Source: Escherichia phage AV103
DNA length: 39,735 bases
Strand: one strand, 5' to 3'
Sequence record: OR352934.1
Below are positions 2,314-23,063 of this stretch, piece after piece. The notes under the pieces were generated by a model. It ran no database searches. It saw nothing but the letters and a program-made list of their open reading frames with translations, and was not told the origin of the DNA. Each line of letters begins with the position of its first letter. The first letter of the stretch is position 1. The position numbers and the translations under genes are program-made.

Positions 2314-2578
2314 GTAAAGTGTAAATATCGTCATCCGTAAGACCGTTATCACCAACTTTCTCTTTGTACTCTTCAAGAGCACCAGCAAGGCCACCCAAGA
2401 TGTGAACATCCGGCTGCAACTTACCAATCTGGAACTTGTGACGGTCTAACAGTTTGTTAATGGCGTTATAGAGTTGTGGGGAACGACGCTCAGGGTCTGA
2501 AAGGTCCGCAAGCATACGCTGAGCCATCGCAGTGTCCAGCATCTCTAAGAATGTAATAAGGCTCTTATCCTTTTCCAT
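2309..2578 (-). CDS. 18: Terminase small subunit (DNA maturation protein A), 89 aa
   Basis: 89-aa ORF MEKDKSLITFLEMLDTAMAQRM..., same length and position as T7 gp18. Confidence 0.9.
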   Translation of the reverse strand: MEKDKSLITFLEMLDTAMAQRMLADLSDPERRSPQLYNAINKLLDRHKFQIGKLQPDVHILGGLAGALEEYKEKVGDNGLTDDDIYTLQ

Positions 2579-2581
2579 ATA

Positions 2582-2785
2582 TCACTCCTTATTGGCTCTC
2601 TTCCAGTCAATTACTTTATCGACTACCTTAGCACCAATCTGAACTACTGTGTAGGCGATAGCGGCAACGTAGAACCACTCATTAAGACTCAGCCCGAAGA
2701 AAAGCCTCGCAGCGCCATCAGCCACACCTGTGCCAACAATAGGTGCAGCTTTGACTAACTCATTATTAAAATCCAAAGACAACAT
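2582..2785 (-). CDS. 17.5: Holin, 67 aa
   Basis: 67-aa ORF with one hydrophobic TM segment (AAPIVGTGVADGAARLFFGL) and charged C-terminus; position between tail fibre and gene 18. Confidence 0.85.
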   Translation of the reverse strand: MLSLDFNNELVKAAPIVGTGVADGAARLFFGLSLNEWFYVAAIAYTVVQIGAKVVDKVIDWKRANKE

Positions 2786-3225
2786 GTGTCCTCCTTATAA
2801 GAGTCCTTCCGTGGACTACACGTCTTTCCTTGATATGATTATTCCAGACCCTTCAACTCAGCCATGAGTTTCAGTAAGTCCTGCTCAATGTCCTTCTTAG
2901 TTCGCTTTTTGGTTTCCTCTGGTGCGTGGAATTTCTTACCGTCCCATGTACACCCTCTCCAGTTACCAGAGAACTCGAAGGAATCAGTCACAATAATGGT
3001 TCCTCCTTCTACTGGTACGTACATACCAGACACAGGCCCGTCGGTAGCCCACATAACGTCGCCGTTAGGTCCAATTCCAACCACCCATGTTTCTTGGCGC
3101 TCATCTAGTTCTTCCATCAAGGTGTACCAATCAACGTTATTGTGGTCACGAATCTCATAGATTGGTTTTCCAAAATAAAACCCTTCGGTCCACTTCCAGT
3201 TAGTAAATACTCTCATTGTCCCTCC

Positions 3226-4887: not shown

Positions 4888-4939
4888 TTGACCTCCTTAA
4901 AGTAAATCTAAGAGACTACAGGGAGAAGATTCTTTCGCC

Positions 4940-4962
4940 TCTCCCTATAGTGAGTCGTATTA
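4940..4962 (-). promoter_or_regulatory. T7 RNAP promoter (phi17)
   Basis: Reverse complement reads TAATACGACTCACTATAGGGAGA immediately upstream of gene 17. Confidence 0.9.
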
Positions 4963-7900: not shown

Positions 7901-8916
7901 GGGTCCACACCAGCGCCAATAACGCCAGCACTCAGTTTGGCACCTAGACCAGCTTCGGCAGCGCGGGAGTCAGCCTCAAAGTTCTCGTTAGCCAGCTTTA
8001 TGAGGTCGTCAAGATTCTCAGGGGAACCACCAGTTACCACGTTGATGTACGCAGGGTTCTTAACCTCTTTCCTAATCTTCTCTAACTCTTCTGGAGTCCA
8101 GATGTGAGAGTTCCAGCGAGTCGGCGTAATGGTGTCTTTAAACACATCAAAACCATTGTCGAGACGACCAGCACGGAAAGCCATCCCAGCTACTGAGTTT
8201 GAGAGTTCAGCTTCGGCAGCATTTTTGAATCCGAAGAAGGTTGAACGATTATTGTACTCGTCAAGTGTTTCTCCGTGGGTCTCCCAAAAGTCCTTGGCGA
8301 ATGGTTTCGCCGGAGCTTCCTGTTCGATACCCTTAACGTCAAAACTTGTGGACTCAGGAAGTTCCTGTGTTACTTTCTGACTGTGACCGATTCCAGCCAA
8401 TCCTACCTCAGCCGGAATGCCTTTACCCTTTGGGGTGATACCTCCAAAAGTTTCCAACTGCCCAGCCATAGGTGACTTAGCAACATCCAGAAGGTTACGC
8501 AGGTAATTACGCCCTTCCTCAGAGATGGACGCGAAGTCTCCCTTGGAGTACGCCTCAAGTTGTGGATTACCCAAGTGTCCCTCGCCTTGGTTGTACGCAA
8601 GGGCAGCTTTGAGTTCGTCCCCATCAAATTTACGCACCAGTTCAGCAAGGTGCTTAGCGGCAGCATTAATAGCTAACTCAGGGTTCAGTCGGTCATCATC
8701 TGGACCATCGGTAACTCGCAACCCCATAGCCTTAGCTGTAGCCTTGGTGAATTGCATCATCCCTAGCGGTCCAGTATTAGATTTAGCTGTAGGTATAAAT
8801 CGTGATTCCGTCCAAGCGACTTTACGTAAAAGGTCATAAGAGACCCCTGTGGCATCAGCCGCCTTCTGGAACAGACCATCATACTCACTTGGTACGTTCT
8901 TATCGTACTTATCCAT
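4960..8916 (-). CDS. 16: Internal virion protein D with N-terminal lytic transglycosylase domain, 1318 aa
   Basis: 1318-aa ORF; N-terminus AWTESRFIPTAKSNTGPLGMMQF is an SLT-type motif; length equals T7 gp16. Confidence 0.95.
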   Translation of the reverse strand: MDKYDKNVPSEYDGLFQKAADATGVSYDLLRKVAWTESRFIPTAKSNTGPLGMMQFTKATAKAMGLRVTDGPDDDRLNPELAINAAAKHLAELVRKFDGDELKAALAYNQGEGHLGNPQLEAYSKGDFASISEEGRNYLRNLLDVAKSPMAGQLETFGGITPKGKGIPAEVGLAGIGHSQKVTQELPESTSFDVKGIEQEAPAKPFAKDFWETHGETLDEYNNRSTFFGFKNAAEAELSNSVAGMAFRAGRLDNGFDVFKDTITPTRWNSHIWTPEELEKIRKEVKNPAYINVVTGGSPENLDDLIKLANENFEADSRAAEAGLGAKLSAGVIGAGVDPLSYVPMVGVTGKGFKLINKALVVGAESAALNVASEGLRTSVAGGDADYAGAALGGFVFGAGMSAISDAVAAGLKRSKPEAEFDNEFIGPMMRLEARETARNANSTDLSRMNTENMKFEGEHNGVPYEELPTERGAVVLHDGSVLSASNPINPKTLKEFSEVDPEKAARGIKLAGFTEIGLKTLGSDDADIRRVAIDLVRSPTGMQSGASGKFGATASDIHERLHGTDQRTYNDLYKAMSDAMKDPEFSTGGAKMSREEARYTIYRRAALAIERPELQKALTPSERIVMDIIKRHFDTKRELMENPAIFGNTKAVSIFPESRHKGTYVPHVYDRHAKALMIQRYGAEGLQEGIARSWMNSYVSRPEVKARVDEMLKEVHGVNEVTPEMVEKYAMDKAYGISHSDQFTNSSIIEENIEGLVGIENNSFLEARNLFDSDLSITMPDGQQFSVNDLRDFDMFRIMPAYDRRINGDIAIMGSTGKTTKELKDEILALKAKVEGDGKKTGEVHALMDTVKILTGRARRNQDTVWETALRSINDLGFFAKNAYMGAQNLTEIAGMIVTGNVRALGHGIPILRDTLYKSKPVSAKELKELHASLFGKEVDQLIRPKRADIVQRLREATDTGPAVANIVGTLKYSTQELAARSPWTKLLNGTTNYLLDAARQGMLGDVISATLAGRTTRWEKEGFLRGASVTPEQMAGIKSLIKEHMVRGEDGKFTIKDKQAFSMDPRAMDLWRLADKVADEAMLRPHKVSLQDSHAFGALGKMVMQFKTFTIKSLNSKFLRTFYDGYKNNRAIDAALSIINSMGLAGGFYAMTVHVKAYALPEEKRKEYLERALDPTMIAHAALSRSSHLGAPLAMVDLVGGALGFESSKMARSTILPKDTTKERDKNKPYTSREVMGAMGSNLLEQMPSAGFVANVGATLMNAAGVVNSPNKATEQDFMTGLMNSTKELVPNDPLTQQLVLKIYEANGVNLRERRK

Positions 8917-8942
8917 TTAGGGCCTCCTTATGTAGCCTTTAG

Positions 8943-11186
8943 TTACTCCTTACGTCCATAGATGAACTTAGGAGTCTGTTTACGTTTCTCTCGGACTCGC
9001 TTAGCAGCAGCTTCACGGGCCTTCTTAGCAGTAGCGATAGGTGCTCGCTTGTTAACATCAGCCAGAGCCTTCTCGCGAGCCTTCTCTTCGAGTTTCTTCT
9101 GGTTCTCACTCCAGACCTTCGAGAGTAACTCTTTATCATAACGGACGCGGACTTGACCAGTGGTGTCCATAAGGTAAATGGAGTCACCTTGAGAATACAT
9201 GGTCAGTTGCTTGTTGGTTATCCAAGGGTTGCTCGCAATGATTCCCTTACGTGCTTCCTCCAGAATATCACGACCTTGCTCCCATGATTTCGGGTCAGAG
9301 TTGACTTGCATCATGTTCTTCGGAATTACACCAACGGTATCACCATCAACATCATCACCAGTGAACGTGTAGGTAGATTCCTTAAGGAACTTGGTCATCT
9401 GCTCCATAGCCATACTTTCGTTCCCTGAGCGATATTTAACTGAGTCATAAATCTTACGCGCAGACTCACGTAGTGACGCTGGCATACGGGCAATCTCAGG
9501 GGACGTAGAGCTATTCAGTGCAGACTCGAATGCTATCATCCTCGAAGCGTTTTGCTCTTTGGAACGCTTGGCAGTCAGTCGGTCAGCGTCAAGAATAACC
9601 TGAGGGTCAATACCCTGCTTGTCCATCATGTCCATCGTCAGGAATAGCTCAGCTTGGTCTGGATATAGCGCAGCAATCAACTGAGGGTCGGCATTACGGA
9701 TTCTACGTAGAGCATCCAGAGCTGGGGTTCGTTCTGGCAACTTACCGTTAATCACAGCGGCAGACCACTCTTGACTAGCATCAGTCACCATAGTCCCGAT
9801 TGCTGTACGGAATGCCCCGTCCTTAGAGTCCGCTTGAAGGTATTTCAGTTTCATCATGTCCTTGGCGCTATCTGGGATGTCCATGCGGTCAATCTCAGCG
9901 AGCTTCTTATTGGCGTAGTTGACCATATCGCTATGCTTGAACTCACCAGTGTTCTCGTTGACTGGCATATCCTTAAAGTCCGTTGAGACCCACTCACCGT
10001 TGATTCGCTTCTGGAACTGCTTGTCGATTACATCAAGTTTGTTCATAGACTTCATGGAATCATCCAGAGCCTTGGCCTGAGCTTTCGTCCATGCGTTCAT
10101 CTGGTTCTGAACTTGCTCCTGTGCCGAGATTAGCCACTCACGTTGTGGTGTCATCTGCTCATCAGGTTGAACCTTATCGAGTTCAGCCTTGATACCTTGA
10201 AGCATCTCCCACGCAGTGCGAGGGTCCTCTTGGTTCAGCGCAGAGTTAATCTTCAAGCGGTACTGCTCGTTCAGCTTAGCGTCATTCTCAAACTGAGAAC
10301 GTTGCGCTGTCACCATGAGAGCATTCCACTGCTCTTCACCCATCAACTCTCGGTAAGTCGTAGTGGCTCCGTTAAGTGTTACCTTCTTGTCGCCTACTCG
10401 CATCAGGAAGTCAGCACCACCAGCACGGCTAGAAGCGTCACTGAATGCTTGACTTATAAGCTGTGTGGCTTGAGCGTCAGACGGGATTGCTCCAGTAACC
10501 AGACCGTTGTCGATGTACTTCTCAAAGAAGTCCGCAGAGTCTTGGCGGCGAAGCATATCGGGGTCTTGAAGGACACTGTTGAGTTCCACTCGGCTGTTCA
10601 TGATGGCACCCTTCTGAGCTTGCTGGCTCAAGAAGTTATCATGTGCGCCATACAGCGAGATGTTACGCTCGGTGATGTCCCCGTTGAAACCACGCTGATA
10701 ATCAACGTCATCAGGGTCAATACCAAACTGCTCAGCGTATGTCTTAGCGCCCTCTTGAAGACGACTGTGACGATACTCTTCCATTTCTTCACGAGTGCGG
10801 AAGACACCCTCTTTGATCTTCTGCATAACGTCATCGTCAACAAGGTACGCTGCATTACGACCAGTCTTGACTCGCAGTGCTTCCATAGCGTATGGGTCAT
10901 CCTGATACAGAAGGGTCCCATTGTTGAGAGCTTCTCGACGTTGCTCAGGGGTCAGCTTACGGATAATCTCGTTGGAGCGTTCGTCAGCTAGGTCTCGTGC
11001 TCTCTGTTCCTTAGCGGTATACATATCAGCACCAGCCTGAGCGAACCGACCAATGGTGTCCAATAGGCTTGACCTTGGTTGTCCAGCTTGAGTGGTTGCT
11101 GCACGATAGCCCATACCGCCAGCACCACCACGTAACCGAGAGAGTCCCGGTTGTGCCGCTTGAAGGGCAGATTCAATTTTACTCAT
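8943..11186 (-). CDS. 15: Internal virion (core) protein C, 747 aa
   Basis: 747-aa ORF, same length and position as T7 gp15. Confidence 0.9.
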   Translation of the reverse strand: MSKIESALQAAQPGLSRLRGGAGGMGYRAATTQAGQPRSSLLDTIGRFAQAGADMYTAKEQRARDLADERSNEIIRKLTPEQRREALNNGTLLYQDDPYAMEALRVKTGRNAAYLVDDDVMQKIKEGVFRTREEMEEYRHSRLQEGAKTYAEQFGIDPDDVDYQRGFNGDITERNISLYGAHDNFLSQQAQKGAIMNSRVELNSVLQDPDMLRRQDSADFFEKYIDNGLVTGAIPSDAQATQLISQAFSDASSRAGGADFLMRVGDKKVTLNGATTTYRELMGEEQWNALMVTAQRSQFENDAKLNEQYRLKINSALNQEDPRTAWEMLQGIKAELDKVQPDEQMTPQREWLISAQEQVQNQMNAWTKAQAKALDDSMKSMNKLDVIDKQFQKRINGEWVSTDFKDMPVNENTGEFKHSDMVNYANKKLAEIDRMDIPDSAKDMMKLKYLQADSKDGAFRTAIGTMVTDASQEWSAAVINGKLPERTPALDALRRIRNADPQLIAALYPDQAELFLTMDMMDKQGIDPQVILDADRLTAKRSKEQNASRMIAFESALNSSTSPEIARMPASLRESARKIYDSVKYRSGNESMAMEQMTKFLKESTYTFTGDDVDGDTVGVIPKNMMQVNSDPKSWEQGRDILEEARKGIIASNPWITNKQLTMYSQGDSIYLMDTTGQVRVRYDKELLSKVWSENQKKLEEKAREKALADVNKRAPIATAKKAREAAAKRVREKRKQTPKFIYGRKE

Positions 11187-11192
11187 AGTTCA

Positions 11193-11783
11193 TTACCTCC
11201 CCGTCTTGGTTCCTTTAGCGGCAACTATAGGTGCCTTAGTTGTGGACTTAGAGTCGAACGCACCGGATGCATAAGCACTCGCAGCGGAAGACCCCATGAT
11301 AGCCAGTGGGTCCAGAACCATCTGTAGCTTACTCTTCTGCTTCTGTTCGCCCTTATAGATTTCTCTAATCTGGCTTGCAGCACCTTGAGTACCGCCAAGT
11401 TGCTGTGCGAAGATTGCTTGGTAGTCACGACGATAGTTCTCAGTTACCATATTGGCTTCCCGAATGAACTGTCCATCTGTGACTCGCTTAATGCGGTCCA
11501 TTGAGGAACCTTCAAGCATACTCTCTCCGATAGCCGCTCGGATAGACCCCATAGCTTGGACCTTCTGCATGTTCTGAGCGGTCAACTCAGAGGACGCTTC
11601 CTCAAGTTTACTTCGAGCTTGTAGCGATAGGTCAGCATTCTGGATGTTCGTCTGCTTCATAAGTTCAAAGGCTTGACGACGACCAGCAGCGGTCTGAGCG
11701 GCAATCATTTTGGCCTGAGTGTGCTGACCACTGATAGCCTGAGCGCCAGCTATAGCGATAGGAATTGCGGCTGCCCAACACAT
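11193..11783 (-). CDS. 14: Internal virion (core) protein B, 196 aa
   Basis: Start taken at internal ATG (MCWAAAIPIAIAG...) preceded by AGGAGG; gives 196 aa as in T7 gp14; the longer 221-aa ORF overlaps gene 13. Confidence 0.85.
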   Translation of the reverse strand: MCWAAAIPIAIAGAQAISGQHTQAKMIAAQTAAGRRQAFELMKQTNIQNADLSLQARSKLEEASSELTAQNMQKVQAMGSIRAAIGESMLEGSSMDRIKRVTDGQFIREANMVTENYRRDYQAIFAQQLGGTQGAASQIREIYKGEQKQKSKLQMVLDPLAIMGSSAASAYASGAFDSKSTTKAPIVAAKGTKTGR

Positions 11784-11787
11784 ATGG

Positions 11788-12204
11788 TTATCCTCCTTTC
11801 GTGATTGTAAATAACTGAAATTGACCATCCTGTGTGTACTCTTCATGGAATACCGCACCGATAGTCTTGAGGAAACGAATGTGGGACGTATTGCCTACCC
11901 ATACGTAATTCCAAAGAGTATCATACTTCTCAAGCATCTTATCGCGATACTCCATGATTAACTTACGGAACTCTCGCTTAGCTTTTCCACTAAGTCGCCA
12001 CACTTGGTCGCTCGTAACGAACCAGCACTGGTCCCCACAGTTACCACCGATAGCTAGAGGGAACCCATGTAGGCTCAACGTGACACACTCGGAAGCATCA
12101 GGGAAACTCGGCTCAATACCCGCAGCCTTAGCTTCAAGAATGTCATGGTGAGCCGGAGTGAATACCTCAAAGTCTGTACTTTTAGTAGGTCTTATAATCA
12201 TCAT
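11788..12204 (-). CDS. 13: Internal virion protein A (gene 13-like), 138 aa
   Basis: 138-aa ORF directly downstream of a T7-type promoter; length equals T7 gp13. Confidence 0.85.
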   Translation of the reverse strand: MMIIRPTKSTDFEVFTPAHHDILEAKAAGIEPSFPDASECVTLSLHGFPLAIGGNCGDQCWFVTSDQVWRLSGKAKREFRKLIMEYRDKMLEKYDTLWNYVWVGNTSHIRFLKTIGAVFHEEYTQDGQFQLFTITKGG

Positions 12205-12231
12205 AAGAAAACCCTCCCGTAGTCGTATTGT

Positions 12232-12254
12232 TCTCCCTATAGTGAGTCGTATTA
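12232..12254 (-). promoter_or_regulatory. T7 RNAP promoter (phi13)
   Basis: Reverse complement TAATACGACTCACTATAGGGAGA upstream of gene 13. Confidence 0.9.
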
Positions 12255-12284
12255 ATTTCGAGCCACCACAGGGAGAACATTTAA

Positions 12285-14675
12285 TTAAATACCGGAACTT
12301 CTCCGTAAGTAGTTACCTTCCCAGCCACACCCAATGATGTTCAGCGGGGTAGTCTCGTCAGACAAGATGGACACGGTATTGAACTTGGCGTTACCAACCA
12401 CAGGGAATCGGTATTGTCCTGTCCCTAAGTTCAATCTCCCAGCCCTCAGAGCGTTAGAGCCTAAGCGGGCACCAGCCATTGTGTACTTCCAGTTGGACGA
12501 TTGGTTCTCAACATAAATGTCGAACGTACCAGACTCCTCATAGTTAACCCACGCTCGGCGTAACTGCAAGCGACCAATGTCTTCCGTTGAGGTTGACCCA
12601 TCGTCGGCAGTCTGCTTGATGAGGAACTTAGAGAACTCATAGACGAAGTTAATGTTGAACCCAATGTACACCGTTCGTCCCTCTAAGTTACCTCTGAGTC
12701 TCAGCCAAGGGTCACTATGCCACCCCGCAGCAGGCTGCTCAAACACTGTTATCTTACCATCAGGTTCTAGTACAGTGATTTTGCCTCTCCCGAAGTTAGC
12801 ACCATAAATGGTTGGAAGATGAATAGAGGTAGTGAATGAGTCATCGTTGTATGTTCCTCTAGGAATCGTGTAGCGAACCTTCATATCCATAAAGGCACGA
12901 TATGGTTCACCTTGTAAGTCAATGGCATTCTTAGTAAAAGCTATTTTAGCTAGGAACGTATTGAACTCATTGCGAAGAATCACATACATAGTTGAGTTGA
13001 TACTCTGACACGCCAGAACCTGTACGTTTTCCCCAAAGTCCCAATGAGACCACGACTGTTGTCTCAACTCTTCGTTCAGGTACAGGAATTTGTAGATGAA
13101 GATTTTACTTGGGTCCCCATGAGATAGTACAGAACAGAAGTTTTCCGTACCACTACCGCAGATACTGAACACACCGTTAGGGATATAGTTAGGAACGTGT
13201 GCTGTAATGTCCTCAGCGTTCTTAACGGAACTTACGTCCTGCACAGCGTAGTACCTGTGGATGGACGTGAAGCTGGACCTTGGACTAGCAAAGTAGACAT
13301 TACGCCCAATGCCATACGGTCTCGCTCGGTCCTGTACGTCAAACTGAGTCGTTAGGTTCAACTCAACCGACTTAGACGTGAGAGTGCCAGAAGCTGTCAG
13401 GACGAATTGTGCCTCATCGGACCAGATTAGTAACTCTTCTGAGAACGGGACGGCGTACTTAAGGATTGCTATCCTGTTTGTACTAACAGCTACGTCTATA
13501 GGGTCATCGTCACTTAGGTTAGCGACTGACGCTGGGAAGAAGTTAAAATATTTTGCAGTACGGCTCAATATAATGTTCTCTCCGCTAAGGAATCCTAAAC
13601 GGTTACGGAAGAAGAAGACATCGTTAATCGTAGAGCCTACGAATGAAGGATACGGGTTAGTATCAGCATCACCGCACACCCTAGGGTTCCATGAGATGGT
13701 CTTGAACTCAAAGTTGCCGTCAGAGGCCCTGACTAGAGCGTGAGGCATCGTATCGTGCGTGTAGTGCAGCTTGGTGTTCCACCCAACAACTTCCTTCCAT
13801 ACCTTACGACTGGTATCATACTGAACGTAATACTGGTCAGCGGACTTTGAGGAATCTCCCACAATCTTAACCATATAGCCGTCTGGGGCGTTTGGTGGTA
13901 ACTTAGAGAACGACTGAGCGTAGTGGGTGACAGGACTAATTAGCTGGTCTGCATAACCATCCTCTGTCGATATGTTCCACACCTCACCACTGGCAGGTGC
14001 TATCACATGGATGAAACCTTGACCAACATTGAATGTCCACCCGTAGGGTCCTAGGTTGTTCCTGAGTTGATTAGCCAACTCGTTAGCCAGCCATTGAGCA
14101 TCAGTATTGTTGACGTGTTCTGGAGCGGACCCGTTAGGGATTGTGTACGATGCATATACTGCACCATTAATCAGCACCTTCAACGTTCTTCCATACTGAC
14201 CGCCTCGCACGTTAATCAGTGCGTCACCTTTATCCCGAAAGTTACCACCAGTTGAAATTTCGGTGGACTCGGTTACTGTGACGTTTCTGTTAACGACAAA
14301 CGTGTAGTCGGCAACTGTCACCATCCGAAGGTCGTTCCTTGGGTTAGCTGTCTGTACATATGCTGCCCCTGTAGGGAAACGCACTTGTTTCTCGTTACCA
14401 GCAAGGTCAAACACACGGATGGTACTTCCGGTAAACACTGCGTAGTACCGCTCATACTCGTCACGGTTTATCAAGTGAATTAAAGGCGCTTGTCCTAAGT
14501 CTCCACTTCCTCCGAGTGTCTTAAGGAAAACCAGAGGTGGACGCTTTTGGAGGCCCTCGGTCTCCGAAGACCAACCGTTAACTTGGCGTGACCCTTGGTC
14601 TGGATAACGAAGGATGTCAGGCTGTTGGCTGATACCACCCTTCAAGTTCTTGATTGATTGGCTAATGAGTGCCAT
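12285..14675 (-). CDS. 12: Tail tubular protein B, 796 aa
   Basis: 796-aa ORF MALISQSIKNLKGGISQQPD...; size and position match T7 gp12. Confidence 0.95.
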   Translation of the reverse strand: MALISQSIKNLKGGISQQPDILRYPDQGSRQVNGWSSETEGLQKRPPLVFLKTLGGSGDLGQAPLIHLINRDEYERYYAVFTGSTIRVFDLAGNEKQVRFPTGAAYVQTANPRNDLRMVTVADYTFVVNRNVTVTESTEISTGGNFRDKGDALINVRGGQYGRTLKVLINGAVYASYTIPNGSAPEHVNNTDAQWLANELANQLRNNLGPYGWTFNVGQGFIHVIAPASGEVWNISTEDGYADQLISPVTHYAQSFSKLPPNAPDGYMVKIVGDSSKSADQYYVQYDTSRKVWKEVVGWNTKLHYTHDTMPHALVRASDGNFEFKTISWNPRVCGDADTNPYPSFVGSTINDVFFFRNRLGFLSGENIILSRTAKYFNFFPASVANLSDDDPIDVAVSTNRIAILKYAVPFSEELLIWSDEAQFVLTASGTLTSKSVELNLTTQFDVQDRARPYGIGRNVYFASPRSSFTSIHRYYAVQDVSSVKNAEDITAHVPNYIPNGVFSICGSGTENFCSVLSHGDPSKIFIYKFLYLNEELRQQSWSHWDFGENVQVLACQSINSTMYVILRNEFNTFLAKIAFTKNAIDLQGEPYRAFMDMKVRYTIPRGTYNDDSFTTSIHLPTIYGANFGRGKITVLEPDGKITVFEQPAAGWHSDPWLRLRGNLEGRTVYIGFNINFVYEFSKFLIKQTADDGSTSTEDIGRLQLRRAWVNYEESGTFDIYVENQSSNWKYTMAGARLGSNALRAGRLNLGTGQYRFPVVGNAKFNTVSILSDETTPLNIIGCGWEGNYLRRSSGI

Positions 14676-14695
14676 TAGAGCCTCCTTATTGATGA

Positions 14696-15286
14696 TTAGC
14701 GAGTCAGTAGACCAGAAGTGAACGCATCGCCATCCAGCATATTGTACCCACCGTAGTCCACTTCGTACTCCATACAGAGACGTCTAGCTTCATCTTCCTC
14801 TTCTTGAAGTACACCCTCTACCTCTGGTGCCCCAAAGAATCGGTTGTTGAACTGACGGGAAGCCTTGGTTACTATCCAGTAGCGGAAGCACTCAGGCATC
14901 TCATCGTAGTCTCGAAGACGTATAATGTTCACAGTAATGCCAGAGTCAAAGCGGTCTGTTTGATTCGTTCGGTCATACACATAGCCACCTCGGTTGACGT
15001 AGATGGATTGACCGGAAGTAGACATTAAGGATAAATAGTCATCGCTGTATACAATCAGGTTGGAGTAAACATCAGGTAAGAGCGTTACACCTTCCTCAAT
15101 GTTGAACGTCCAGCCACGAGACTGAATCTGTCGGTTAATCTTATTGAGAATACGTCGAGCGTTCGCCACGTCTGCGTTAGCATCACCTTCCAGCGTCGAT
15201 ACCGGAGGTTCCCCGATAGATGCCAGAATGTCGTTCACAGCGGATAACTCAGCGGCAGTCTCAACGTTCATATCGTAAGAGCGCAT
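14696..15286 (-). CDS. 11: Tail tubular protein A, 196 aa
   Basis: 196-aa [32 protein letters not shown]...; SD GAAAGGAGGAACTAT-ATG just downstream of the terminator. Confidence 0.95.
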
Positions 15287-15304
15287 ATAGTTCCTCCTCC
15301 TTTC

Positions 15305-15350
15305 AGCAAAAAACCCCTCAAGACCCGTTTAGAGGCCCCAAGGGGTTATG
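15305..15350 (-). terminator. T7 late terminator Tphi
   Basis: Reverse complement CTAGCATAACCCCTTGGGGCCTCTAAACGGGTCTTGAGGGGTTTTTTG: GC-rich hairpin plus U-tract between capsid gene and gene 11. Confidence 0.95.
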
Positions 15351-15354
15351 CTAG

Positions 15355-16544
15355 TTATTGCTCAGCGGTGGCGGCAGCCAACTCAGCTTCCTTTCGGGCT
15401 TTGTTAGCAGCGCGGGTGCGTGCGGCCTTCTGTGCTGGCGTTAAGGTTTCTTCTGTTGAAGTAACACTCTCCTCTTCGGGACTAGCAGCGACCGTTGAGG
15501 CCACTCCCAGCATTACTTCCCCTTGAAAACCACTGCACCAGCAGCTTCTGGGCGCAGACCACCGTGGCCCATTGCATACTTAGCAATAATCTGGTCTGCT
15601 TGGAAGTTAGCACGGCGAGCGCGCTCCAGAGCCAAGTCACGCAGTTTAACAGTACCTACCGCAGAGCGGTGCATGAACAGGCCGATAACGTTGTCCTTAG
15701 CAACCTTGTCGTTACCACTCTTAGTGGCAGGGAAGGCGTGCTTCTGACCAGTAGTATCATCACGAGAGGTGCCAGCACCACCAGCGGTGAGGTGAGGAAC
15801 TTCTACAACCTCAAAGCCCATAACGTTGCGGATAGAACCCTTCTCAGGGTCAATCAGAGCAGCGTAGTTTGCTGCGTTCGGCATAAGTGCTGCCAGAATC
15901 GCAGAGTAGCTATCTGGGTCGCAGTAGAACACACGGTCAGCAGCCGGAACATAGTTCTTAGTCAGAGCCGCACGAGCCTTGGTCAGAGCCGCAATAATCT
16001 CCTTACCCAGCGCAACTTGGTCGGTAAGTGCCGCCTTGTCCTGAGTGGTCTCAATTACGGTAGCAGTGCCCAGACCTGCAATGTTCTCATCAGAGGCGCT
16101 CGCCAAGTTACACAGGCCAGCAATCTCAGCCAGAACCGCACCATCAGCAGCCATAGCCAGAGATTCACCCAACTGAGAGGTATACTCAGAGCGAACGTCA
16201 TAGTGGTTCATCGCGTCCTCAATATCGTAAATCAGAACGTCAGCCGTCAGTAGGCCATCAATGGTGATGGTCTTCTCGGTGTGTTTGATGTCTTTACGTT
16301 TATCATCGAGGTTCTCACCAGGAGACAAGTAAGCTGCCTGAGTGCGACCCAGTACAGGGAACTGAGCGGATTTACCGCTGGAGATGGAACGGACCATGTG
16401 GCGAGAAGTGGTCACAGAGGTACGAGCGAATGCAGTCAGAACTTCACCACCAAATACCTTCAAGAACAACGCCAGTTTATCAGAAGCGCTTGCACCTTTA
16501 CCTTGGTTAGTACCCAGTTGCTGTCCACCAGTCATAGTAGTCAT
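15355..16544 (-). CDS. 10B: Minor capsid protein 10B, made by -1 frameshift near the 3' end of 10A
   Basis: Sense strand has GGTTTTC close to the 10A stop; the -1 frame stays open for about 53 codons (...TLTPAQKAARTRAANKARKEAELAAATAEQ*), stopping at 15355-15357 just before Tphi. Confidence 0.6.
15513..16544 (-). CDS. 10A: Major capsid protein 10A, 343 aa
   Basis: 343-aa ORF MTTMTGGQQLGTNQGKG...; preceded by phi10 leader and SD AAGGAGA. Confidence 0.95.
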   Translation of the reverse strand: MTTMTGGQQLGTNQGKGASASDKLALFLKVFGGEVLTAFARTSVTTSRHMVRSISSGKSAQFPVLGRTQAAYLSPGENLDDKRKDIKHTEKTITIDGLLTADVLIYDIEDAMNHYDVRSEYTSQLGESLAMAADGAVLAEIAGLCNLASASDENIAGLGTATVIETTQDKAALTDQVALGKEIIAALTKARAALTKNYVPAADRVFYCDPDSYSAILAALMPNAANYAALIDPEKGSIRNVMGFEVVEVPHLTAGGAGTSRDDTTGQKHAFPATKSGNDKVAKDNVIGLFMHRSAVGTVKLRDLALERARRANFQADQIIAKYAMGHGGLRPEAAGAVVFKGK

Positions 16545-16602
16545 ATGTATGTCTCCTTCTTAAAGTTAAACAAGAATGATTTCTAGAGGGAAACCGTTGT
16601 GG

Positions 16603-16625
16603 TCTCCCTATAGTGAGTCGTATTA
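16603..16625 (-). promoter_or_regulatory. T7 RNAP promoter (phi10) with GGGAGACCACAACGGTTTCCC leader hairpin
   Basis: Reverse complement TAATACGACTCACTATAGGGAGACCACAACGGTTTCCCTCTAGAAAT...AAGGAGA...ATG. Confidence 0.95.
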
Positions 16626-16638
16626 ATTTAAGAGTCTA

Positions 16639-17562
16639 TCAGAAGTTCGAGTCGATTACTTTCTGTTCGACTTGACGACGATAATTGGCATCTGTGCGAT
16701 ACCGAGGGTCGCTCATAGCTTTAATCATCTCGCTACGGTCCGCAAAGCCTTCACGCTTGGTCGCCTGAGGTTTAGCCGGAATAGCACGATTAGTCACGCT
16801 ACGAGTTGGCTTACGACCGAACGCCTTAGCGCGAGACTCACCAGCCAAGTTGATGATAGCCTTAACGGTCGCTAAGTCACGATTGGTCAACGCATTGTCC
16901 AGTGACTGTGCAGCCTCAGGGTTGTGCGTCTCAAGGTGATTGTACAGTGCGTCAAAACGCTCACGACCGCCAGCGTACTCAATGACACTGTTTACGTACC
17001 GCTCCACCAGAGCCTCTTGACCACGAATGTATGAGTCAATGAAAGCCTTCGTGTAGCCAATTTCAGCCAGCTTAGCGTAGGACTCAGCGGACAACTCTTC
17101 GTTCTCCTCGTACTCACGCTGGATGGCCTCTATGGTCTCAACACTCATGCCACGCTCGGCAGCAATGTTAATCATCTCTTGGAAGCCCTCTTCGTGCTCG
17201 CCAAGTTGCTCAGAGGCGGCTACCAGTTCTTCTGGAGTCTCACCCAGCGGGGTAAACTCCTCGGAACCTTCGGTGTCATCAGCGCCTTCTTCACCAGTGT
17301 CCACATCGGTCGGCTCAGAGCCATCCCCAATGCGAACCTGAATGCGGCCTTCGTCATCCTCTTGACCGAATGGGTCAGAGTTGTCGTACAGGTCACGTTC
17401 TGTTTCCACTTCGTCGGACGCTAACTCGATTGCATCATCGCCATCACGGGCAGCAACATCAAGAGCCAGCATGTTCTGCTCATGTTCCTCAACGGAACCA
17501 CCAGACATCACAGCGGAGTTCACGCCAAAAGATGCATATACGTCTGCATTAGATTCAGCCAT
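16639..17562 (-). CDS. 9: Capsid assembly (scaffolding) protein, 307 aa
   Basis: 307-aa highly acidic ORF between portal and capsid genes; same length as T7 gp9. Confidence 0.95.
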   Translation of the reverse strand: MAESNADVYASFGVNSAVMSGGSVEEHEQNMLALDVAARDGDDAIELASDEVETERDLYDNSDPFGQEDDEGRIQVRIGDGSEPTDVDTGEEGADDTEGSEEFTPLGETPEELVAASEQLGEHEEGFQEMINIAAERGMSVETIEAIQREYEENEELSAESYAKLAEIGYTKAFIDSYIRGQEALVERYVNSVIEYAGGRERFDALYNHLETHNPEAAQSLDNALTNRDLATVKAIINLAGESRAKAFGRKPTRSVTNRAIPAKPQATKREGFADRSEMIKAMSDPRYRTDANYRRQVEQKVIDSNF

Positions 17563-17638
17563 TATTATTGTCTCCTTAAAGTTGAACTACAGGGAGACGC
17601 AGCGAAGGTCCGCAGTACGGATTGCCTCGAAGTCTTAC

Positions 17639-17661
17639 TCTCCCTATAGTGAGTCGTATTA
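17639..17661 (-). promoter_or_regulatory. T7 RNAP promoter (phi9)
   Basis: Reverse complement TAATACGACTCACTATAGGGAGA overlapping the 3' end of gene 8. Confidence 0.9.
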
Positions 17662-19269
17662 AATACCCGGCTGTAGACCTACGGACTCAGCGGCAGCAGT
17701 CATAGCCTCAGGTGAAGCTGTGGCCTGCGCAGCCATACCTTGACCAAGCGCAGCAGCACCACTATCCATACCCATTTGCATAGACTGTTGAGCCATCCTC
17801 TGTTGCTTCTGTTCTTCGGTAAGAAGGATACCAGAAGTGTCAATACCGATGGCGTTAGCAATGCGCAACTTAATCATAGCAAGGTTGATGTCAGGGTCAT
17901 CACGCATAGGAGCTAGAGCAGCCCACGCAGTGACACAACGCTCCAGCTTATCGAGGTCTTGACCACGACCGATTGCTTCCAGACCTGTACTAATGGTTGG
18001 CTCTACGGCTTCCTTAGGTAACTCAGGAATCTGTTGCGTGGCTTGTAGTTGCTTCAAGAGCACTCGTACCAGAGGCAATTGTAATTCTTGAGAAAGGATT
18101 GAGTAGACACCACCTAAAGTATCTTCAAGTTCAGAAGCGACATACCGAATCTCTTCGGCGGTAACACGTTCACCTGTGCGCTGAACCGCAGAGTTCAACA
18201 TAAAGGCAAACGAAAGTCGAGCCTCAATAGCGTCACTGACAGCCTTGGCTACAGTAAAGTCTGCTTGCTTCTCCAGTTGGAGGAACGAGATGTCTTCTGG
18301 ACGACCAGTAACGAAGTCACCAGTCTGAGCTTTGGTCAGTCGGCGTGGCTGGGTGATACCAGCAGGATTCACTAAGCCGATAACCTTAGAGCTAATCATG
18401 GACATCTTGACGATAGCCTCTTGGAGATTCTCAAGGGACCGTAAGTCACCTAAGTATTCCTCAATGTACGAACGACCGTAGGATTCACCGTCCAGACGAA
18501 CCATTCGAATCGGGATGTATGGGCAAGCATCTTTAGGATACGCCCCATCGGAGCCTTGTATCTCCATACCTTCAACCTCTTCGTAGCGGAGATATTCGTC
18601 TGACTCTTCGTCCAAGTAGATGTGAGTATACACATCAATGGTCTCATCAGGTTTCTTCTCACCGCCTTGACCTTCTACAGCCTTACGGATGTCCTCAGGG
18701 AGAGCACCAAAAGCTATCTGGTCACGAGTCACCATTTGCAGAACGTTGCCGAATGCGTCTCGTTGGACCACATAAGAAGACAATCGGTACAGCTTCATGG
18801 GATTATAGTTTGACCCTTCCGGTTCAGGTAGGTACAGCAGGACATTACCAGCTACGACTAACTGTTTGAGAGCCTCAAAGAGAGTCACTCGGTAACTGTT
18901 AGACTCAATGTAGTTCATGATGATACGCTCTACCATCGAGAGACCCTCATCGACCTTAGCGAGTCCATCGGGGTCATTCAGTAACTGTTTTGCTTCATAC
19001 TCAGAGATGGTCAGCTTCATCCACGTTTGCATCGGGAAGAGAGCCAGCATGAGCTTAGAGGCCAAGTTATTGAGACCGCGAGCACCCACAGCTTGCCACG
19101 GAGTTGTGTAGTCTGTGGATGAGTTATCGGAGTCCTTAGGGAAGAGGGACGGAATGGTATACTGAGCGCAGTTTTGGGCACGAGTCTCATAAGGAGCGCG
19201 GTCGTTCTTTAATCGCTCATAGACCGACTTTGCACCTTCCTCGGCTAGACCTGTACGCTTCTCAGCCAT
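17659..19269 (-). CDS. 8: Portal (head-to-tail connector) protein, 536 aa
   Basis: 536-aa ORF MAEKRTGLAEEGAKSVYERLKNDRAPYETRAQN...; length equals T7 gp8. Confidence 0.95.
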   Translation of the reverse strand: MAEKRTGLAEEGAKSVYERLKNDRAPYETRAQNCAQYTIPSLFPKDSDNSSTDYTTPWQAVGARGLNNLASKLMLALFPMQTWMKLTISEYEAKQLLNDPDGLAKVDEGLSMVERIIMNYIESNSYRVTLFEALKQLVVAGNVLLYLPEPEGSNYNPMKLYRLSSYVVQRDAFGNVLQMVTRDQIAFGALPEDIRKAVEGQGGEKKPDETIDVYTHIYLDEESDEYLRYEEVEGMEIQGSDGAYPKDACPYIPIRMVRLDGESYGRSYIEEYLGDLRSLENLQEAIVKMSMISSKVIGLVNPAGITQPRRLTKAQTGDFVTGRPEDISFLQLEKQADFTVAKAVSDAIEARLSFAFMLNSAVQRTGERVTAEEIRYVASELEDTLGGVYSILSQELQLPLVRVLLKQLQATQQIPELPKEAVEPTISTGLEAIGRGQDLDKLERCVTAWAALAPMRDDPDINLAMIKLRIANAIGIDTSGILLTEEQKQQRMAQQSMQMGMDSGAAALGQGMAAQATASPEAMTAAAESVGLQPGI

Positions 19270-19283
19270 GTGTCACCTCCTGT

Positions 19284-19604
19284 TTAAATGTTGATGCCGC
19301 CACCGGAGCTACGGGCTACACTCAAGGACTTCTTACCGCCAGAACGAGCTTTCCTGCGTCCGCTTTCGGTCTGTGCTTCGTCCTCAGTGGAAACCTCTTT
19401 CTCAGGTACGTCAACAATTTGTGCAGCAGGGGTCGCAGCAGCCGTTGGCTGTGGTACTTCCACCACCTGTGCTTCACCAGCACCACCTGCCAGCGCACCA
19501 GCAACCTGTTTAATAGGACGAGTCACTTCCTTGGTAACTTTCTTCACAGCTTTCTCAACGGGCTTAGTGATTTTCTTCACTACCTTCTTAACTTTCTTAC
19601 CCAT
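19284..19604 (-). CDS. 7.3: Gene 7.3-like virion/host-range protein, 106 aa
   Basis: Lysine-rich N-terminus MGKKVKKVVKKITKPVEKAVKKV and C-terminus KSLSVARSSGGGINI, as I recall for T7 gp7.3. Confidence 0.85.
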   Translation of the reverse strand: MGKKVKKVVKKITKPVEKAVKKVTKEVTRPIKQVAGALAGGAGEAQVVEVPQPTAAATPAAQIVDVPEKEVSTEDEAQTESGRRKARSGGKKSLSVARSSGGGINI

Positions 19605-19607
19605 AAC

Positions 19608-20009
19608 TTATACCTCCTTAAAGTATACACGCATTGTCTCGCCTTCATGTTTACAGCGGGACACCCAATCGCAATCGTGGAGTTCTGCAAGGTACTTAAA
19701 GCGTTTCGCGAGGAATCGCTGTAAGCCCTTAGAGTCTGCCTCAGGATTAATAACAACTGACGTAACGTCCAGAATGTCTCCCTTGTGGTGAATGTCACAG
19801 CTTACGCACCACGCGAAGTACGCTACATGTTTTCCGGTAGAGTCCAGAATGTACTCTTCACGGCAACCAGACATGTCCATAACTTCGTCAACGTAGAGGC
19901 TGTAGCCCACAAAGTGTCCTTCGAATCCCTTAGGCAACCCAAGGTGTTCCACAGTCCACCGAATTGCACGGAAGCGACTCTTGGCCTCCACACATGTGAA
20001 CTCAGGCAT
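19608..20009 (-). CDS. 7: Gene 7 host-range protein, 133 aa
   Basis: 133-aa ORF between 6.7 and 7.3; same length as T7 gp7. Confidence 0.85.
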   Translation of the reverse strand: MPEFTCVEAKSRFRAIRWTVEHLGLPKGFEGHFVGYSLYVDEVMDMSGCREEYILDSTGKHVAYFAWCVSCDIHHKGDILDVTSVVINPEADSKGLQRFLAKRFKYLAELHDCDWVSRCKHEGETMRVYFKEV

Positions 20010-20275
20010 TACTTCTTACCTCCGAATGCGGACTTACGGATTGAAGATTTCATACGAGCTGAACCAGTACCACTGGCTTTAGACTTCGCTACGGAATCAT
20101 CGCGTTCGACCTTGAGGTCTTTGCGTCCAGACACTTCGGTGCCTTCGGTATCCGTCTCATCAGAAGACCCACCGAACTCTACGCTTGACACTTCTTTGGT
20201 CAGAGGCGCTGGCTCAACGGCTCGAATCTGATTGGTATCCATCTTCGGAACTTTAACTTTCGGTGAGAAACACAT
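20009..20275 (-). CDS. 6.7: Gene 6.7 virion protein, 88 aa
   Basis: Start at internal ATG (MCFSPKVKVPKMDTNQIRAVEPAPL...) with SD GGGAGGA; 88 aa as T7 gp6.7. Confidence 0.8.
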   Translation of the reverse strand: MCFSPKVKVPKMDTNQIRAVEPAPLTKEVSSVEFGGSSDETDTEGTEVSGRKDLKVERDDSVAKSKASGTGSARMKSSIRKSAFGGKK

Positions 20276-20279
20276 AAGG

Positions 20280-20534
20280 TCAATCCTCCCCATCATCTCT
20301 TAGTTGTTCCTTGCGTAACTCAATCTCATCAATGACGTTAGAGGCATACTGTAGGCCCTGAATGAAACCCAAGATGTGGGCTTCACTACAACCATTAGCA
20401 CGCATAAGTCCTATATGACCAGACGCTTCGAGATACGCATAGTTGAATCGAACCTGTAGATACTCAGCGGTTGCACGAGGCACATCTGGAATATCGTTAG
20501 GGTTCTTAAGTAATTGGTTAATAGGTGTTAACAT
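20280..20534 (-). CDS. 6.5: Gene 6.5 protein, 84 aa
   Basis: 84-aa ORF immediately downstream of phi6.5. Confidence 0.8.
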
Positions 20535-20570
20535 GATAAAGATTCCTCTTAGAGTTAAATCTTAAAGTAA

Positions 20571-20645
20571 TAATCATAAAGGCCCCTATCTCCCTATAGT
20601 GAGTCGTATTAATTTAGGGACCTTGAGTTTATCACTTAGTGTCGT
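20571..20645 (-). promoter_or_regulatory. RNase III site (R6.5-like) enclosing the phi6.5 promoter
   Basis: ATCATAAAGGCCCC...GGGACCTTGAG inverted repeat flanks the promoter sequence. Confidence 0.5.
20589..20611 (-). promoter_or_regulatory. T7 RNAP promoter (phi6.5)
   Basis: Reverse complement TAATACGACTCACTATAGGGAGA. Confidence 0.9.
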
Positions 20646-20745
20646 GTAACGACTTGATTACTAGGGCTAAGTCCCAAAGGCCCAACGAAATGATGCACGT
20701 TCCGAGAGCACAAATAATAATGCCAAGCCACTCTATGGTCTCCAC
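20632..20745 (-). CDS. 6.3: Gene 6.3-like small hydrophobic protein, 37 aa, GTG start
   Basis: GTG at 20745 preceded by AAGGAGA with 7-nt spacer; translates (M)ETIEWLGIIICALGTCIISLGLWDLALVIKSLHDTK; overlaps the gene 6 stop as T7 6.3 does. Confidence 0.5.
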   Translation of the reverse strand: METIEWLGIIICALGTCIISLGLWDLALVIKSLHDTK

Positions 20746-21635
20746 AGGTAAATCTCCTTGTCAATAAAGTTGTACTCGTTGAACCGAAGGATGCGAGCCA
20801 TCTGGCCCTGCTTGATAATATCCTCTTCGGTCATACCAGCCTTAGCACCAATGGACTTAATGCAGTCCCAAAGCGTCTCATGAGGCTCAGGGGCGCGTTT
20901 AACCCATTTAGTAACCTCTTGGCCTTTGTTCTTACCAGACTTAAGCACAGACGTTTTAGGCTCGACTATGAACGGGTTATTCAAGAAGTCCTCGGCGGTA
21001 TCACCCCATCCGGCAATCCCTGAGTAACCATCGGTGATGTCACCTTTGATTGTCTGGAAGAGGTGCCACCAGTCAGCGGACTCCTCTGTCTGAGTAATGA
21101 TGTTACCAGTGGTACACCACAGGAAATCACAGTTAGGGATGGTCTTAAAGTCCTTATCGCACGAGATGATTACCGCCTTACGAGCACCGAAGGCAGACGG
21201 ATTGGAAGCAATAACTCCCATAACGTCATCACCCTCAAGCATCGGCTCGCGGATGCAATAGAACTCTTCGCGCTCAAAGAGAGCATCAAGGAACTCAAAG
21301 TAACCTACAGGTTTCTTAGTGGCCTTACGGTTAGCCTTGTAGTTCGGGTCAACCAGTTCTTTACGCCAGTTAACACTATCGGTGAACGCAAGGACAATCG
21401 GAGCACCTACCCAAGCCTTCTTACGGGTCTCGTAGGACTTAATGGAATCCTCAAGAATCTGACGGGCCTTAGCGTGGTCACAACAGCGATGCCAAATCTC
21501 TTCCTCCCATGAGGCATCAAACTCAGCAGCACTCATCGCTTGGAAGACCAGCCAGTCACCATCCATCACAAGGATGCCCTTGTCGTCACAGCCTTCACGT
21601 AACTCGTAGAATTGTTTCAGGTCAAGAAGCGCCAT
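20733..21635 (-). CDS. 6: 5'-3' exonuclease, 300 aa
   Basis: 300-aa ORF, same length and position as T7 gp6. Confidence 0.95.
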   Translation of the reverse strand: MALLDLKQFYELREGCDDKGILVMDGDWLVFQAMSAAEFDASWEEEIWHRCCDHAKARQILEDSIKSYETRKKAWVGAPIVLAFTDSVNWRKELVDPNYKANRKATKKPVGYFEFLDALFEREEFYCIREPMLEGDDVMGVIASNPSAFGARKAVIISCDKDFKTIPNCDFLWCTTGNIITQTEESADWWHLFQTIKGDITDGYSGIAGWGDTAEDFLNNPFIVEPKTSVLKSGKNKGQEVTKWVKRAPEPHETLWDCIKSIGAKAGMTEEDIIKQGQMARILRFNEYNFIDKEIYLWRP

Positions 21636-21780
21636 TAAGTTTCTCCTCTAGCTCAGCCACGTATTCGTCAGCTTCCATTAGTTGATTCTTAAGGCTATCG
21701 TTCTCACGTTCCAGAGAGTCGATGTAGCCCTGCATATCGTTCCATACATCGCGCGGAATAGTCACAAGGTCGCTAGACAT
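21622..21780 (-). CDS. 5.9: Gene 5.9 RecBCD inhibitor, 52 aa
   Basis: Internal ATG gives MSSDLVTIPRDVWNDMQGYIDSLERENDSLKNQLMEADEYVAELEEKLNGAS; start overlaps the 5.7 stop (TAATG). Confidence 0.8.
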   Translation of the reverse strand: MSSDLVTIPRDVWNDMQGYIDSLERENDSLKNQLMEADEYVAELEEKLNGAS

Positions 21781-21989
21781 TATACACACCCTCCCATTCG
21801 TTTCAGAAAGCGAGTACCAGAAGCAGTAATTTCCCAAGCGCCACCGTTACGTCCACTTGTGGTCAGGCACGAGATGTGACCACGGGAAGCGGCCTCCGCT
21901 ACGAGGCTCGCATTGTTACGTACATAGTTGGACTGGAAAGTCTTAGGGCAACTTTTGATTGCTTGCAGCACTTTCAAGTAGTCAGACAT
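21780..21989 (-). CDS. 5.7: Gene 5.7 protein, 69 aa
   Basis: 69-aa ORF, same length and position as T7 gp5.7. Confidence 0.85.
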   Translation of the reverse strand: MSDYLKVLQAIKSCPKTFQSNYVRNNASLVAEAASRGHISCLTTSGRNGGAWEITASGTRFLKRMGGCV

Positions 21990-22288
21990 CAGAACACCTC
22001 CCGTACAGTTGCAGGAGAGAGTTTGAAGTAGTCCTTATCGGCATACTCTTCGTGCATGTCCTTGATTGCCTCACGAAATGATGTACGCACTACGAACGCC
22101 ATCAAACCTTCCATACCGTTGGTCAGGAACTGGACAATCATTTCCTTCTGTTTACCATCTGGGACAATCGCACCTGAGCCGACCTGCTTACATAGATGCA
22201 GCATGTCTTTCTCTAAGATTGCCTGAACGTCAGACGGCATCTTTGCGGTAACATCAAAGGACACTTTAAATTTCTTAGTGATAGCCAT
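21989..22288 (-). CDS. 5.5: Gene 5.5 protein (H-NS-binding in T7), 99 aa
   Basis: Start at ATG 22288 (MAITKKFKVSFDVTAKM...) with SD GGAGAAATTATT; the in-frame upstream part of the 157-aa ORF overlaps polymerase exon 2. Confidence 0.85.
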   Translation of the reverse strand: MAITKKFKVSFDVTAKMPSDVQAILEKDMLHLCKQVGSGAIVPDGKQKEMIVQFLTNGMEGLMAFVVRTSFREAIKDMHEEYADKDYFKLSPATVREVF

Positions 22289-22307
22289 AATAATTTCTCC
22301 TATAGTA

Positions 22308-22463
22308 TCAGTGACATACGGCCCAGTTAGGACCCATCTTACCTTCGGTATCCAGAAGACACCGGAAGTTCCAGTGGTCTCCAACCCAGCGCATTGCTTC
22401 TTGTGCGGTCTCAATGACCACCTTAGCAATCTCTTCGGTACGGCAACCCACTTGAATCTCATC
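22308..22463 (-). CDS. 5: DNA polymerase exon 2 (C-terminal 51 aa)
   Basis: Frame translates DEIQVGCRTEEIAKVVIETAQEAMRWVGDHWNFRCLLDTEGKMGPNWAVCH*, the conserved polymerase C-terminus; continues exon 1 after the intron. Confidence 0.85.
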   Translation of the reverse strand, partial: DEIQVGCRTEEIAKVVIETAQEAMRWVGDHWNFRCLLDTEGKMGPNWAVCH

Positions 22464-23063
22464 CTTTCTGTATTCTCCTATTACTAGGAGTGTCGGACTA
22501 TATCATCAGCCTTTGAGTTGACTGTCTGGCGCTTCGGGTAACGAGGGAATCTCACCCTCGGCCCTACTCCTTTCGGATAGTCTCTACGCCTTCCACTCTC
22601 TAATCCACTTACAAGCGGCAGAGAACGTTACACCAAACTTCTCACCTAAGTGTGTCCCTGTACATCCAGTCTCAAACCAGTATTCCTTCGCGGACTCTTT
22701 ACGGTCAGCGTAGCGTTCCATGTTTGTCTTGACTGTATGCTCAGAACCTTCTAGTAACTGGAGGTGCTCTACGTTACAGCACGCCCTGTTCCTACACTTG
22801 TGGTCTACTTCATACCCTTCTGGTATATCCCCGTAGTGTTCCTTCCAGACTGTCCTGTGATACATTTCTAGTACACCGTTCGTCTTCTTTCGGAAATAAC
22901 CATCAGCATTAAGTTTGTGTGACGTAGGGATGATACAACCACTCTCTGTGGTCGCAAGGATTAACTTCTTGCCTCTCATATATCCTCCCTATGGCTTGGC
23001 TCGGTATTGCCCAGAAGGGTTTCACCGAGTTCACCAGATTTAATGTGCACAATGAGATAGTTT
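22464..23063 (-). mobile_element. Intervening sequence in the DNA polymerase gene, probable group I intron carrying an HNH endonuclease ORF (600 bp)
   Basis: Polymerase frame stops 7 codons after ...FAYMAWVH and resumes 600 nt downstream; exon 1 ends in U, intron ends in G; internal ORF has its own SD; about 200 nt of non-coding flank. Confidence 0.8.
22584..22979 (-). CDS. Intron-encoded HNH homing endonuclease, 131 aa
   Basis: HNH motif EVDHKCRNRACCNVEHLQL; SD GGGAGGATAT-ATG; lies wholly inside the interruption of gene 5. Confidence 0.85.
   Translation of the reverse strand: MRGKKLILATTESGCIIPTSHKLNADGYFRKKTNGVLEMYHRTVWKEHYGDIPEGYEVDHKCRNRACCNVEHLQLLEGSEHTVKTNMERYADRKESAKEYWFETGCTGTHLGEKFGVTFSAACKWIREWKA

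Follow-up and report, generated by a model that had tools for sequence, protein, structure and literature searches.

Gene 10 of the phage genome considered here very probably ends in an orthologue of the programmed -1 ribosomal frameshift of T7 gene 10, a reading to which we assign a probability of roughly 0.93. The window, that is, the whole stretch of 39,735 bases that was analysed, represents a complete or near-complete T7-like phage genome whose genes lie on the minus strand, in reverse orientation, and it contains, at equal spacing, all of the sequence components described for T7. According to the mechanism that we propose, most ribosomes would read Val-Phe-Lys-Gly-Lys-stop where the capsid gene ends and set free 10A, the major capsid protein (343 aa). 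In a smaller share of cases the P-site tRNA-Val and the A-site tRNA-Phe would slip back by one base, from GUU.UUC to GGU.UUU; translation of 56 codons in the -1 frame would then yield the minor capsid protein 10B (396 aa) and would end 7 nt before the terminator Tphi. By analogy with T7, the 10B tail is expected to form a surface-exposed and dispensable decoration on a fraction of the capsid subunits. We infer, likewise by analogy, both that frameshifting takes place in the window phage and how efficient it may be: a slippage of ~10% and a dependence on the 5' side of the terminator would be carried over from the T7/Kvp1 literature. The feature itself is already known and biologically nothing new, the 10A/10B frameshift of T7 gene 10 having been described decades ago, reportedly by Dunn and Studier in 1983, by Condron, Atkins and Gesteland in 1991 and by Sipley et al. 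in 1991.

Gene 10 and Its Genomic Context

The window phage is assigned to the genus Teseptimavirus. Over the gene 10 region (15290..16640) it shares 98.2% identity with Cedecea phage Yanou, ~98% with Bas104, 97.6-97.9% with four phages other than Yanou (two of E. coli and two of Shigella) and 93.3% DNA identity with T7. Comparison of window positions 1..25000 with the phage collection returned no match above ~95%, the best reaching ~93-95% (N30, UFV01, SYGE1 and 13a). The low identity over the 25 kb searched, taken together with the ~98% found in gene 10, points to mosaicism; the phage thus probably stands in a mosaic relationship to known phages and probably constitutes a distinct, new species of Teseptimavirus.

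We attribute the gene 10 mRNA to a phi10-type promoter for T7 RNA polymerase at 16603..16625 on the minus strand, where TAATACGACTCACTATAGGGAGA can be read directly; promoter phi10 is annotated at the homologous position in the T7 and 13a records. Gene 10A occupies 16544..15513 on the minus strand in the ORF list, encodes a major capsid protein of 343 aa with a predicted mass of ~36.2 kDa and ends in ...AGAVVFKGK*, with its TAA stop at 15515..15513 on the same strand. The product gives a profile match to the Pfam family PF21703 (Gp10A-like, E 1.7e-114) and matches chain 2xvr_A of the PDB, which is major capsid protein 10A of T7 (E 1.8e-203). On these matches we regard the ORF as an unambiguous homologue of T7 gp10A.

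The Slip Site and the -1 Reading Frame

The slippery heptamer G_GTT_TTC covers Val339-Phe340 at 15525..15531 on the minus strand, where a check of the sequence shows it to follow the 10A frame as X_XXY_YYZ, three codons ahead of the 10A stop. From the slip site through that stop (15531..15513, minus strand) the string reads GGTTTTCAAGGGGAAGTAA. An earlier note on this DNA had claimed a slippery site near the 10A stop, and the position of the heptamer (15531..15525), its correct frame and its distance of three codons from the TAA bear this out. The note had also stated that the 10A C-terminus departs from that of T7 (VVFKGK versus VVFKVE), which is correct, as T7 (L001) reads GTGGTTTTCAAAGTGGAGTAA, and that slip site and extension are nevertheless retained, which agrees with our finding of the same heptamer, frame and stop distance as in T7, followed by an open -1 frame.

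Read from the heptamer, the -1 frame yields GFQGEVMLGV...KARKEAELAAATAEQ* and closes with a TAA at 15357..15355. As delimited by translation and homology, the 10B-specific segment (15355..15525, minus strand) comprises 56 sense codons (QGEVMLGVASTVAASPEEESVTSTEETLTPAQKAARTRAANKARKEAELAAATAEQ) plus this TAA; the tail starts with QGEVMLGV and ends with AELAAATAEQ. The predicted fused 10B would count 396 aa, with a mass of ~41.6 kDa, and would exceed 10A (343 aa) by 53 aa, as is the case in T7. The "53-codon extension" of the earlier note is thus right as the net length difference between 10B and 10A and wrong as a count of -1 codons, which is 56. Its further statement that the extension ends at 15355, directly ahead of Tphi, was accurate, since only the 7 nt CTAGCAT lie between the TAA and the hairpin.

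The tail of the window is identical to that of T7 at 52/56 residues and to that of Yanou at 56/56. It matches PHROG 12582, described as "head protein" (E 2.3e-27); in a Pfam search with the 56-aa tail of the window nothing reached the cut-off. With respect to composition, an acidic half rich in Ser, Thr and Glu is followed by a basic, Ala-rich half that contains the conserved motif LTPAQKAARTRAANKA. A separate match connects residues 355-396 of 10B with residues 22-63 of PDB entry 8rcx chain A, the transcriptional regulator VirS (E 9.6e-09). This match lies near the N-terminus of the VirS chain and may stem from expression-vector-derived sequence rather than from biology.

Conservation Among Relatives

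For the comparison we used 80 IMG/VR relatives together with 3 GenBank records, which provided 66 distinct gene 10 3' ends. GGTTTTC is kept in 58 of the 66 distinct relatives and NGTTTTC in 3 more. The Val codon of the slip site is GTT in 63/66 and neighbouring four-fold sites vary freely, one of them being, for example, GCA in 14, GCG in 42, GCT in 9 and GCC in 1 of the 66 relatives. The base ahead of GTT is G in 59/66, with the corresponding residue being Val, Leu or Ala. Within the tail, variation follows the -1 frame: across the 16 distinct Teseptimavirus tails the variable columns number 14, 11 and 29 at -1 codon positions 1, 2 and 3, of 57 columns each, which amounts to a third-position excess (chi-square ~10.3, 2 df, p ~0.006), and the indels of 3, 6, 21 and 27 nt are all multiples of 3. 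We read these patterns as the mark of purifying selection on the -1 frame and of a selection on the motif that is independent of the amino acids of 10A.

Individual relatives depart from this picture. The first slip position is not G in L005 (A_GTT_TTC) and L017 (C_GTT_TTC), and L083 shows G_GTA_AAG instead of G_GTT_TTC. In L079 the -1 frame meets a premature stop after 15 codons, and a 21-nt in-frame deletion affects the basic half of the tail in L011.

Beyond the genus, phages with a capsid of ~80% identity (L018-L083, compared with 15355..15531 of the window) carry, behind GGTTTTC, at least three unrelated types of -1 tail. One tail type measures 40-55 aa and contains the motif LTPxQKAAxTRAxNKA, which is common to T7 and the window; another measures 90-92 aa (LSVNTFSAR...FKLVVTN) and had no Pfam match at the cut-off. 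Those relatives from other genera that combine the slip site with unrelated tails have no ATG at the junction, so that ribosomes can reach their -1 frame only by a shift. In evolutionary terms, the shift site appears to predate the tails that follow it and to be more stable than they are.

The heptamer alone is uninformative, as GGTTTTC is not enriched in the window, where 5 copies are observed and 4.6 expected. In the genes of this genome, 1.6% of the codon positions are followed by 56 or more open codons in the -1 frame. Among the 11 in-frame slippery-type heptamers found in coding-strand ORFs, only that of gene 10 (1/11) unites a real gene, an adjoining stop and a long open -1 frame. A second G_GTT_TTC, located in gene 12 (14532..14526, minus strand; gene 12 at 14675..12285), was rejected, with a -1 stop after 1 codon; slippage there would merely truncate gp12, and the site is a built-in negative control for the heptamer on its own. 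Also set aside were A_AAG_GGT at 28450, inside a spurious alternative-frame ORF within gene 3, and AAATTTG at 8631, in a spurious alternative-frame ORF inside the 8916..4960 ORF. What lends the feature its real weight is homology and conservation rather than the frequency of the heptamer, and the interpretation of the site as a 10B frameshift, put forward in the earlier note, is supported by T7 homology, by conservation of the motif and by the coding signature of the -1 frame.

Alternative Explanations

Could the tail instead be a gene of its own? A 52-codon ORF runs from an ATG at 15513..15511 to the TAA at 15355 and might be translated alone, through initiation or re-initiation at TAATG. Its ATG overlaps the 10A stop and is preceded by the purine-rich AAGGGGAAG just upstream (15511..15524, minus strand), with a Shine-Dalgarno-like AAGGGG 5 nt upstream of the ATG; neither the ATG nor its GTAATG context varies among 14 Teseptimavirus sequences. 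In addition, the PHROG 12582 profile spans 52 residues, and several records list a separate CDS, as ORF40 "hypothetical protein" in Yanou and as "head protein" in others. Such calls are, however, to be expected of gene finders that are unable to model a frameshift, which report a free 52-aa ORF because of the TAATG and the purine-rich sequence upstream. Independent initiation would also leave the synonymous-site conservation of G_GTT_TTC unexplained, relatives that carry the slip site and homologous tails (LTPxQKAAxTRAxNKA) lack an ATG at this place, and the T7 product is a 10A-10B fusion that is found in virions. We therefore hold a free-standing small protein to be quite improbable. There is, in our estimation, a very slight chance that motif and open frame are a non-functional, inherited relic with negligible shifting or an unselected tail. 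It would agree with the dispensability of 10B for the laboratory growth of T7 and T3 (PMC5592923, PMC3276506), with the early stop of L079 and the 21-nt deletion of L011, and with a local context after the slip site that is unlike that of T7. A relic does not, on the other hand, account for a frame that is open and that shows third-position bias and solely in-frame indels across relatives, for a heptamer conserved at synonymous sites across genera, or for a tail that Yanou, a phage isolated independently, shares in full despite a 1.8% DNA difference in the gene 10 region.

A longer product might also arise during transcription, if RNA polymerase slipped on the T-run and a one-base deletion was thereby introduced into some transcripts. 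The site does contain a homopolymeric T4 run (15529..15526), but four bases are too short for this purpose; at the established sites of transcriptional slippage, a run of ~6-9 or more identical bases is required (reviewed in PMC5009743). The T7 site, moreover, has been classed as ribosomal tandem slippage (PMC5009743), and we see next to no chance for a transcriptional origin of 10B. Programmed ribosomal frameshifting as in T7 is the reading that we retain, and it has implications for annotation: gene 10 should carry a joined 10B CDS of 396 aa and not a stand-alone 52-aa ORF. In the T7 record, 10B is a joined CDS made of two pieces; that of 13a describes its translation as "via slippery sequence". 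Automatic pipelines often call a free 52-aa "hypothetical" or "head" protein, as has happened in the closest relatives.

RNA Structures Downstream of the Slip Site

A terminator scan detected a Tphi-type terminator on the minus strand (15308..15347), with a 15-bp stem and a 6-nt loop at 15347..15312 and a T-run that extends to 15308. In the alignment, window and T7 agree at every base of the stretch that begins with the -1 stop and closes with the T-run, Tphi included, and Tphi is annotated at the homologous place in the T7 record. The CCCC of its 5' arm is located at 15345..15342, 180 nt 3' of the heptamer; its presence was tested in the window, and its role is taken from work on T7, in which the terminator CCCC, located >200 nt 3' of the slip site, takes part in frameshifting in a manner left unexplained (PMC5009743).

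Closer to the slip site, folding predicts a 12-bp hairpin on the minus strand (15481..15511; GCUGG.AGUGGCC / UCAAC / GGUCGCU.GCUAGU; -17.6 kcal/mol). It begins 13 nt past the heptamer; when 14 distinct Teseptimavirus sequences were folded, 12 of them were predicted to form it. Across these 14 sequences 96.4% of cells are paired, and all variation is one-sided, each change keeping a standard pair; there are 0 compensatory changes and no excess over shuffles. RNAalifold, applied from the slip site to Tphi in 11 Teseptimavirus sequences, yielded 75 pairs with 0 compensatory changes and an unfavourable covariation term. As it performed no better than shuffles, we dropped the hairpin as a demonstrated stimulator; it is possibly a candidate 3' stimulator, judged from the predicted fold. 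At 5-9 nt 3' of the heptamer, where a canonical stem-loop would start, the window has none, the only local hairpin being the one that follows the 13-nt spacer, and no Rfam family was matched in 15200..16700 at a permissive threshold.

Other clades display different structures. In the clade with the 90-92-aa tail (L030, L025, L031, L034, L041, L043 and 12 others) a 16-bp hairpin lies ~21 nt 3' of the slip site, at +22..+60 after the heptamer, and is 97.9% paired. Two adjacent pairs covary (A-U 9 / G-C 7 and C-G 9 / U-A 5 / U-G 2), and the observed covariation score was reached by 0/500 shuffles. A third clade (L019, L021, L023, L028, L062 and L079) presents a strong hairpin after a 6-nt spacer, and the L027-type clade has no such hairpin.

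Since the terminator requirement of T7 is unexplained, the whole gene 10 mRNA was scanned for a partner of the Tphi side, the query being the stretch of 22 nt (15354..15333) that separates the stop of 10B from the Tphi loop. The best partner in the window is the slip site itself, at -25.1 kcal/mol as compared with a mean of -11.2 (sd 3.8; z ~-3.7), through the pairs GGUUUUCAAGGGG:CCCCUUGGGGCC and AUGCUGG:CUAGCAU. The second-best partner, ~20 nt 3' of the heptamer, reaches -24.4 kcal/mol and would pair GGCCUCAA:UUGGGGCC, GG:CC within the CCCC, and UGCUAG:CUAGCA. In T7 and in 7/9 other Teseptimavirus loci scored, this second duplex ranks first across the whole gene; in 13a, as in the window, the slip site ranks first. 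The complementarity arises because the hairpin 13 nt past the slip site and Tphi have similar tops (GGCCTCAACGGTC and GGCCTCTAAACGGGTC, respectively) and because both hairpin regions hold a CTAG palindrome (GCTAGT in 15511..15481, CTAGCA on the Tphi side).

We speculate that a transient long-range pairing, in competition with the 15511..15481 hairpin and with Tphi, could be the missing frameshift stimulator, an idea suggested by the predicted duplexes that we nonetheless consider improbable. The partner sequences are invariant and show no covariation, the pairing is absent in two close relatives and in most of the other clades scanned, and the two local hairpins together are more stable than the long-range duplex. 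The lead is weak and amounts effectively to one observation, with p ~0.05. If true, it might explain, at the level of RNA, why frameshifting in T7 gene 10 needs the distant 5' side of Tphi. Concerning G-runs in this region, GGGGG at +17 in T7 corresponds to GGGAG in the window, which has GGGG at +3; the notion that the run had "moved" from +17 to +3 and paired with the Tphi CCCC was discarded, N30/C5, L008 and phiA1122 being without a G4 within 30 nt.

Comparison With Known Systems

Among the known systems considered here is E. coli dnaX, which shifts at A_AAA_AAG with the aid of an upstream Shine-Dalgarno stimulator and of a stem-loop ~6 nt downstream. Common to dnaX and the window is a presumed tandem tRNA slippage on an X_XXY_YYZ-like heptamer by a bacterial ribosome. 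They differ in that the spacer of the window measures 13 nt, with no close stem-loop, in that re-pairing at the first position would be imperfect (G_GU), and in that the T7 system relies on a distant terminator element.

Phages T3 and phiYeO3-12 also perform a -1 shift near the end of the homologous capsid gene, which generates a minor and dispensable variant. Their shift, unlike that proposed for the window, takes place two codons further on, at the Lys codon within C_CCA_AAG, and leads into a T3-like tail of 85-92 aa that forms a Big_2 Ig-like domain. The window has neither C_CCA_AAG nor Big_2; it has GGTTTTC and a 56-aa tail and does not belong to the T3 type, Big_2 being found solely in the tails of the T3-like relatives. 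Another known case is the gp10B of Kluyvera phage Kvp1, which stems from a T7-like capsid gene with the poly-U/Phe site TTTTCA that is also present in the window. Kvp1 belongs to another genus and has another tail, and whereas the window is known from its sequence, Kvp1 has been verified by mass spectrometry, which found peptides of 10B produced by a shift at TTTTCA (PMC2579914).

The closest counterpart is T7 itself, in which the -1 shift at G_GUU_UUC is a tandem slippage whose first position (G_GU) is imperfect (PMC5009743). There, 10B accounts for ~10% of translations (PMC1635266) and for ~5-10% of the virion, with its C-terminus forming an unstructured surface extension (PMC8923235). The window differs from T7 in the codons that follow the slip, AAG GGG AAG (KGK, or QGEV in the -1 frame) in place of AAA GTG GAG (KVE, or QSGV in the -1 frame), and as these three post-slip codons are not the same, the efficiency of shifting could differ as well. 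Further differences are the tail substitutions A19E and E33K and a 10A of 343 aa, the T7 10A chain having 345 aa. Against these stand the likenesses: the same G_GTT_TTC in the same frame, three codons before the stop, 56 codons in the -1 frame, a 10B longer than 10A by 53 aa, and an identical Tphi with its CCCC, at an equal distance from the slip site.
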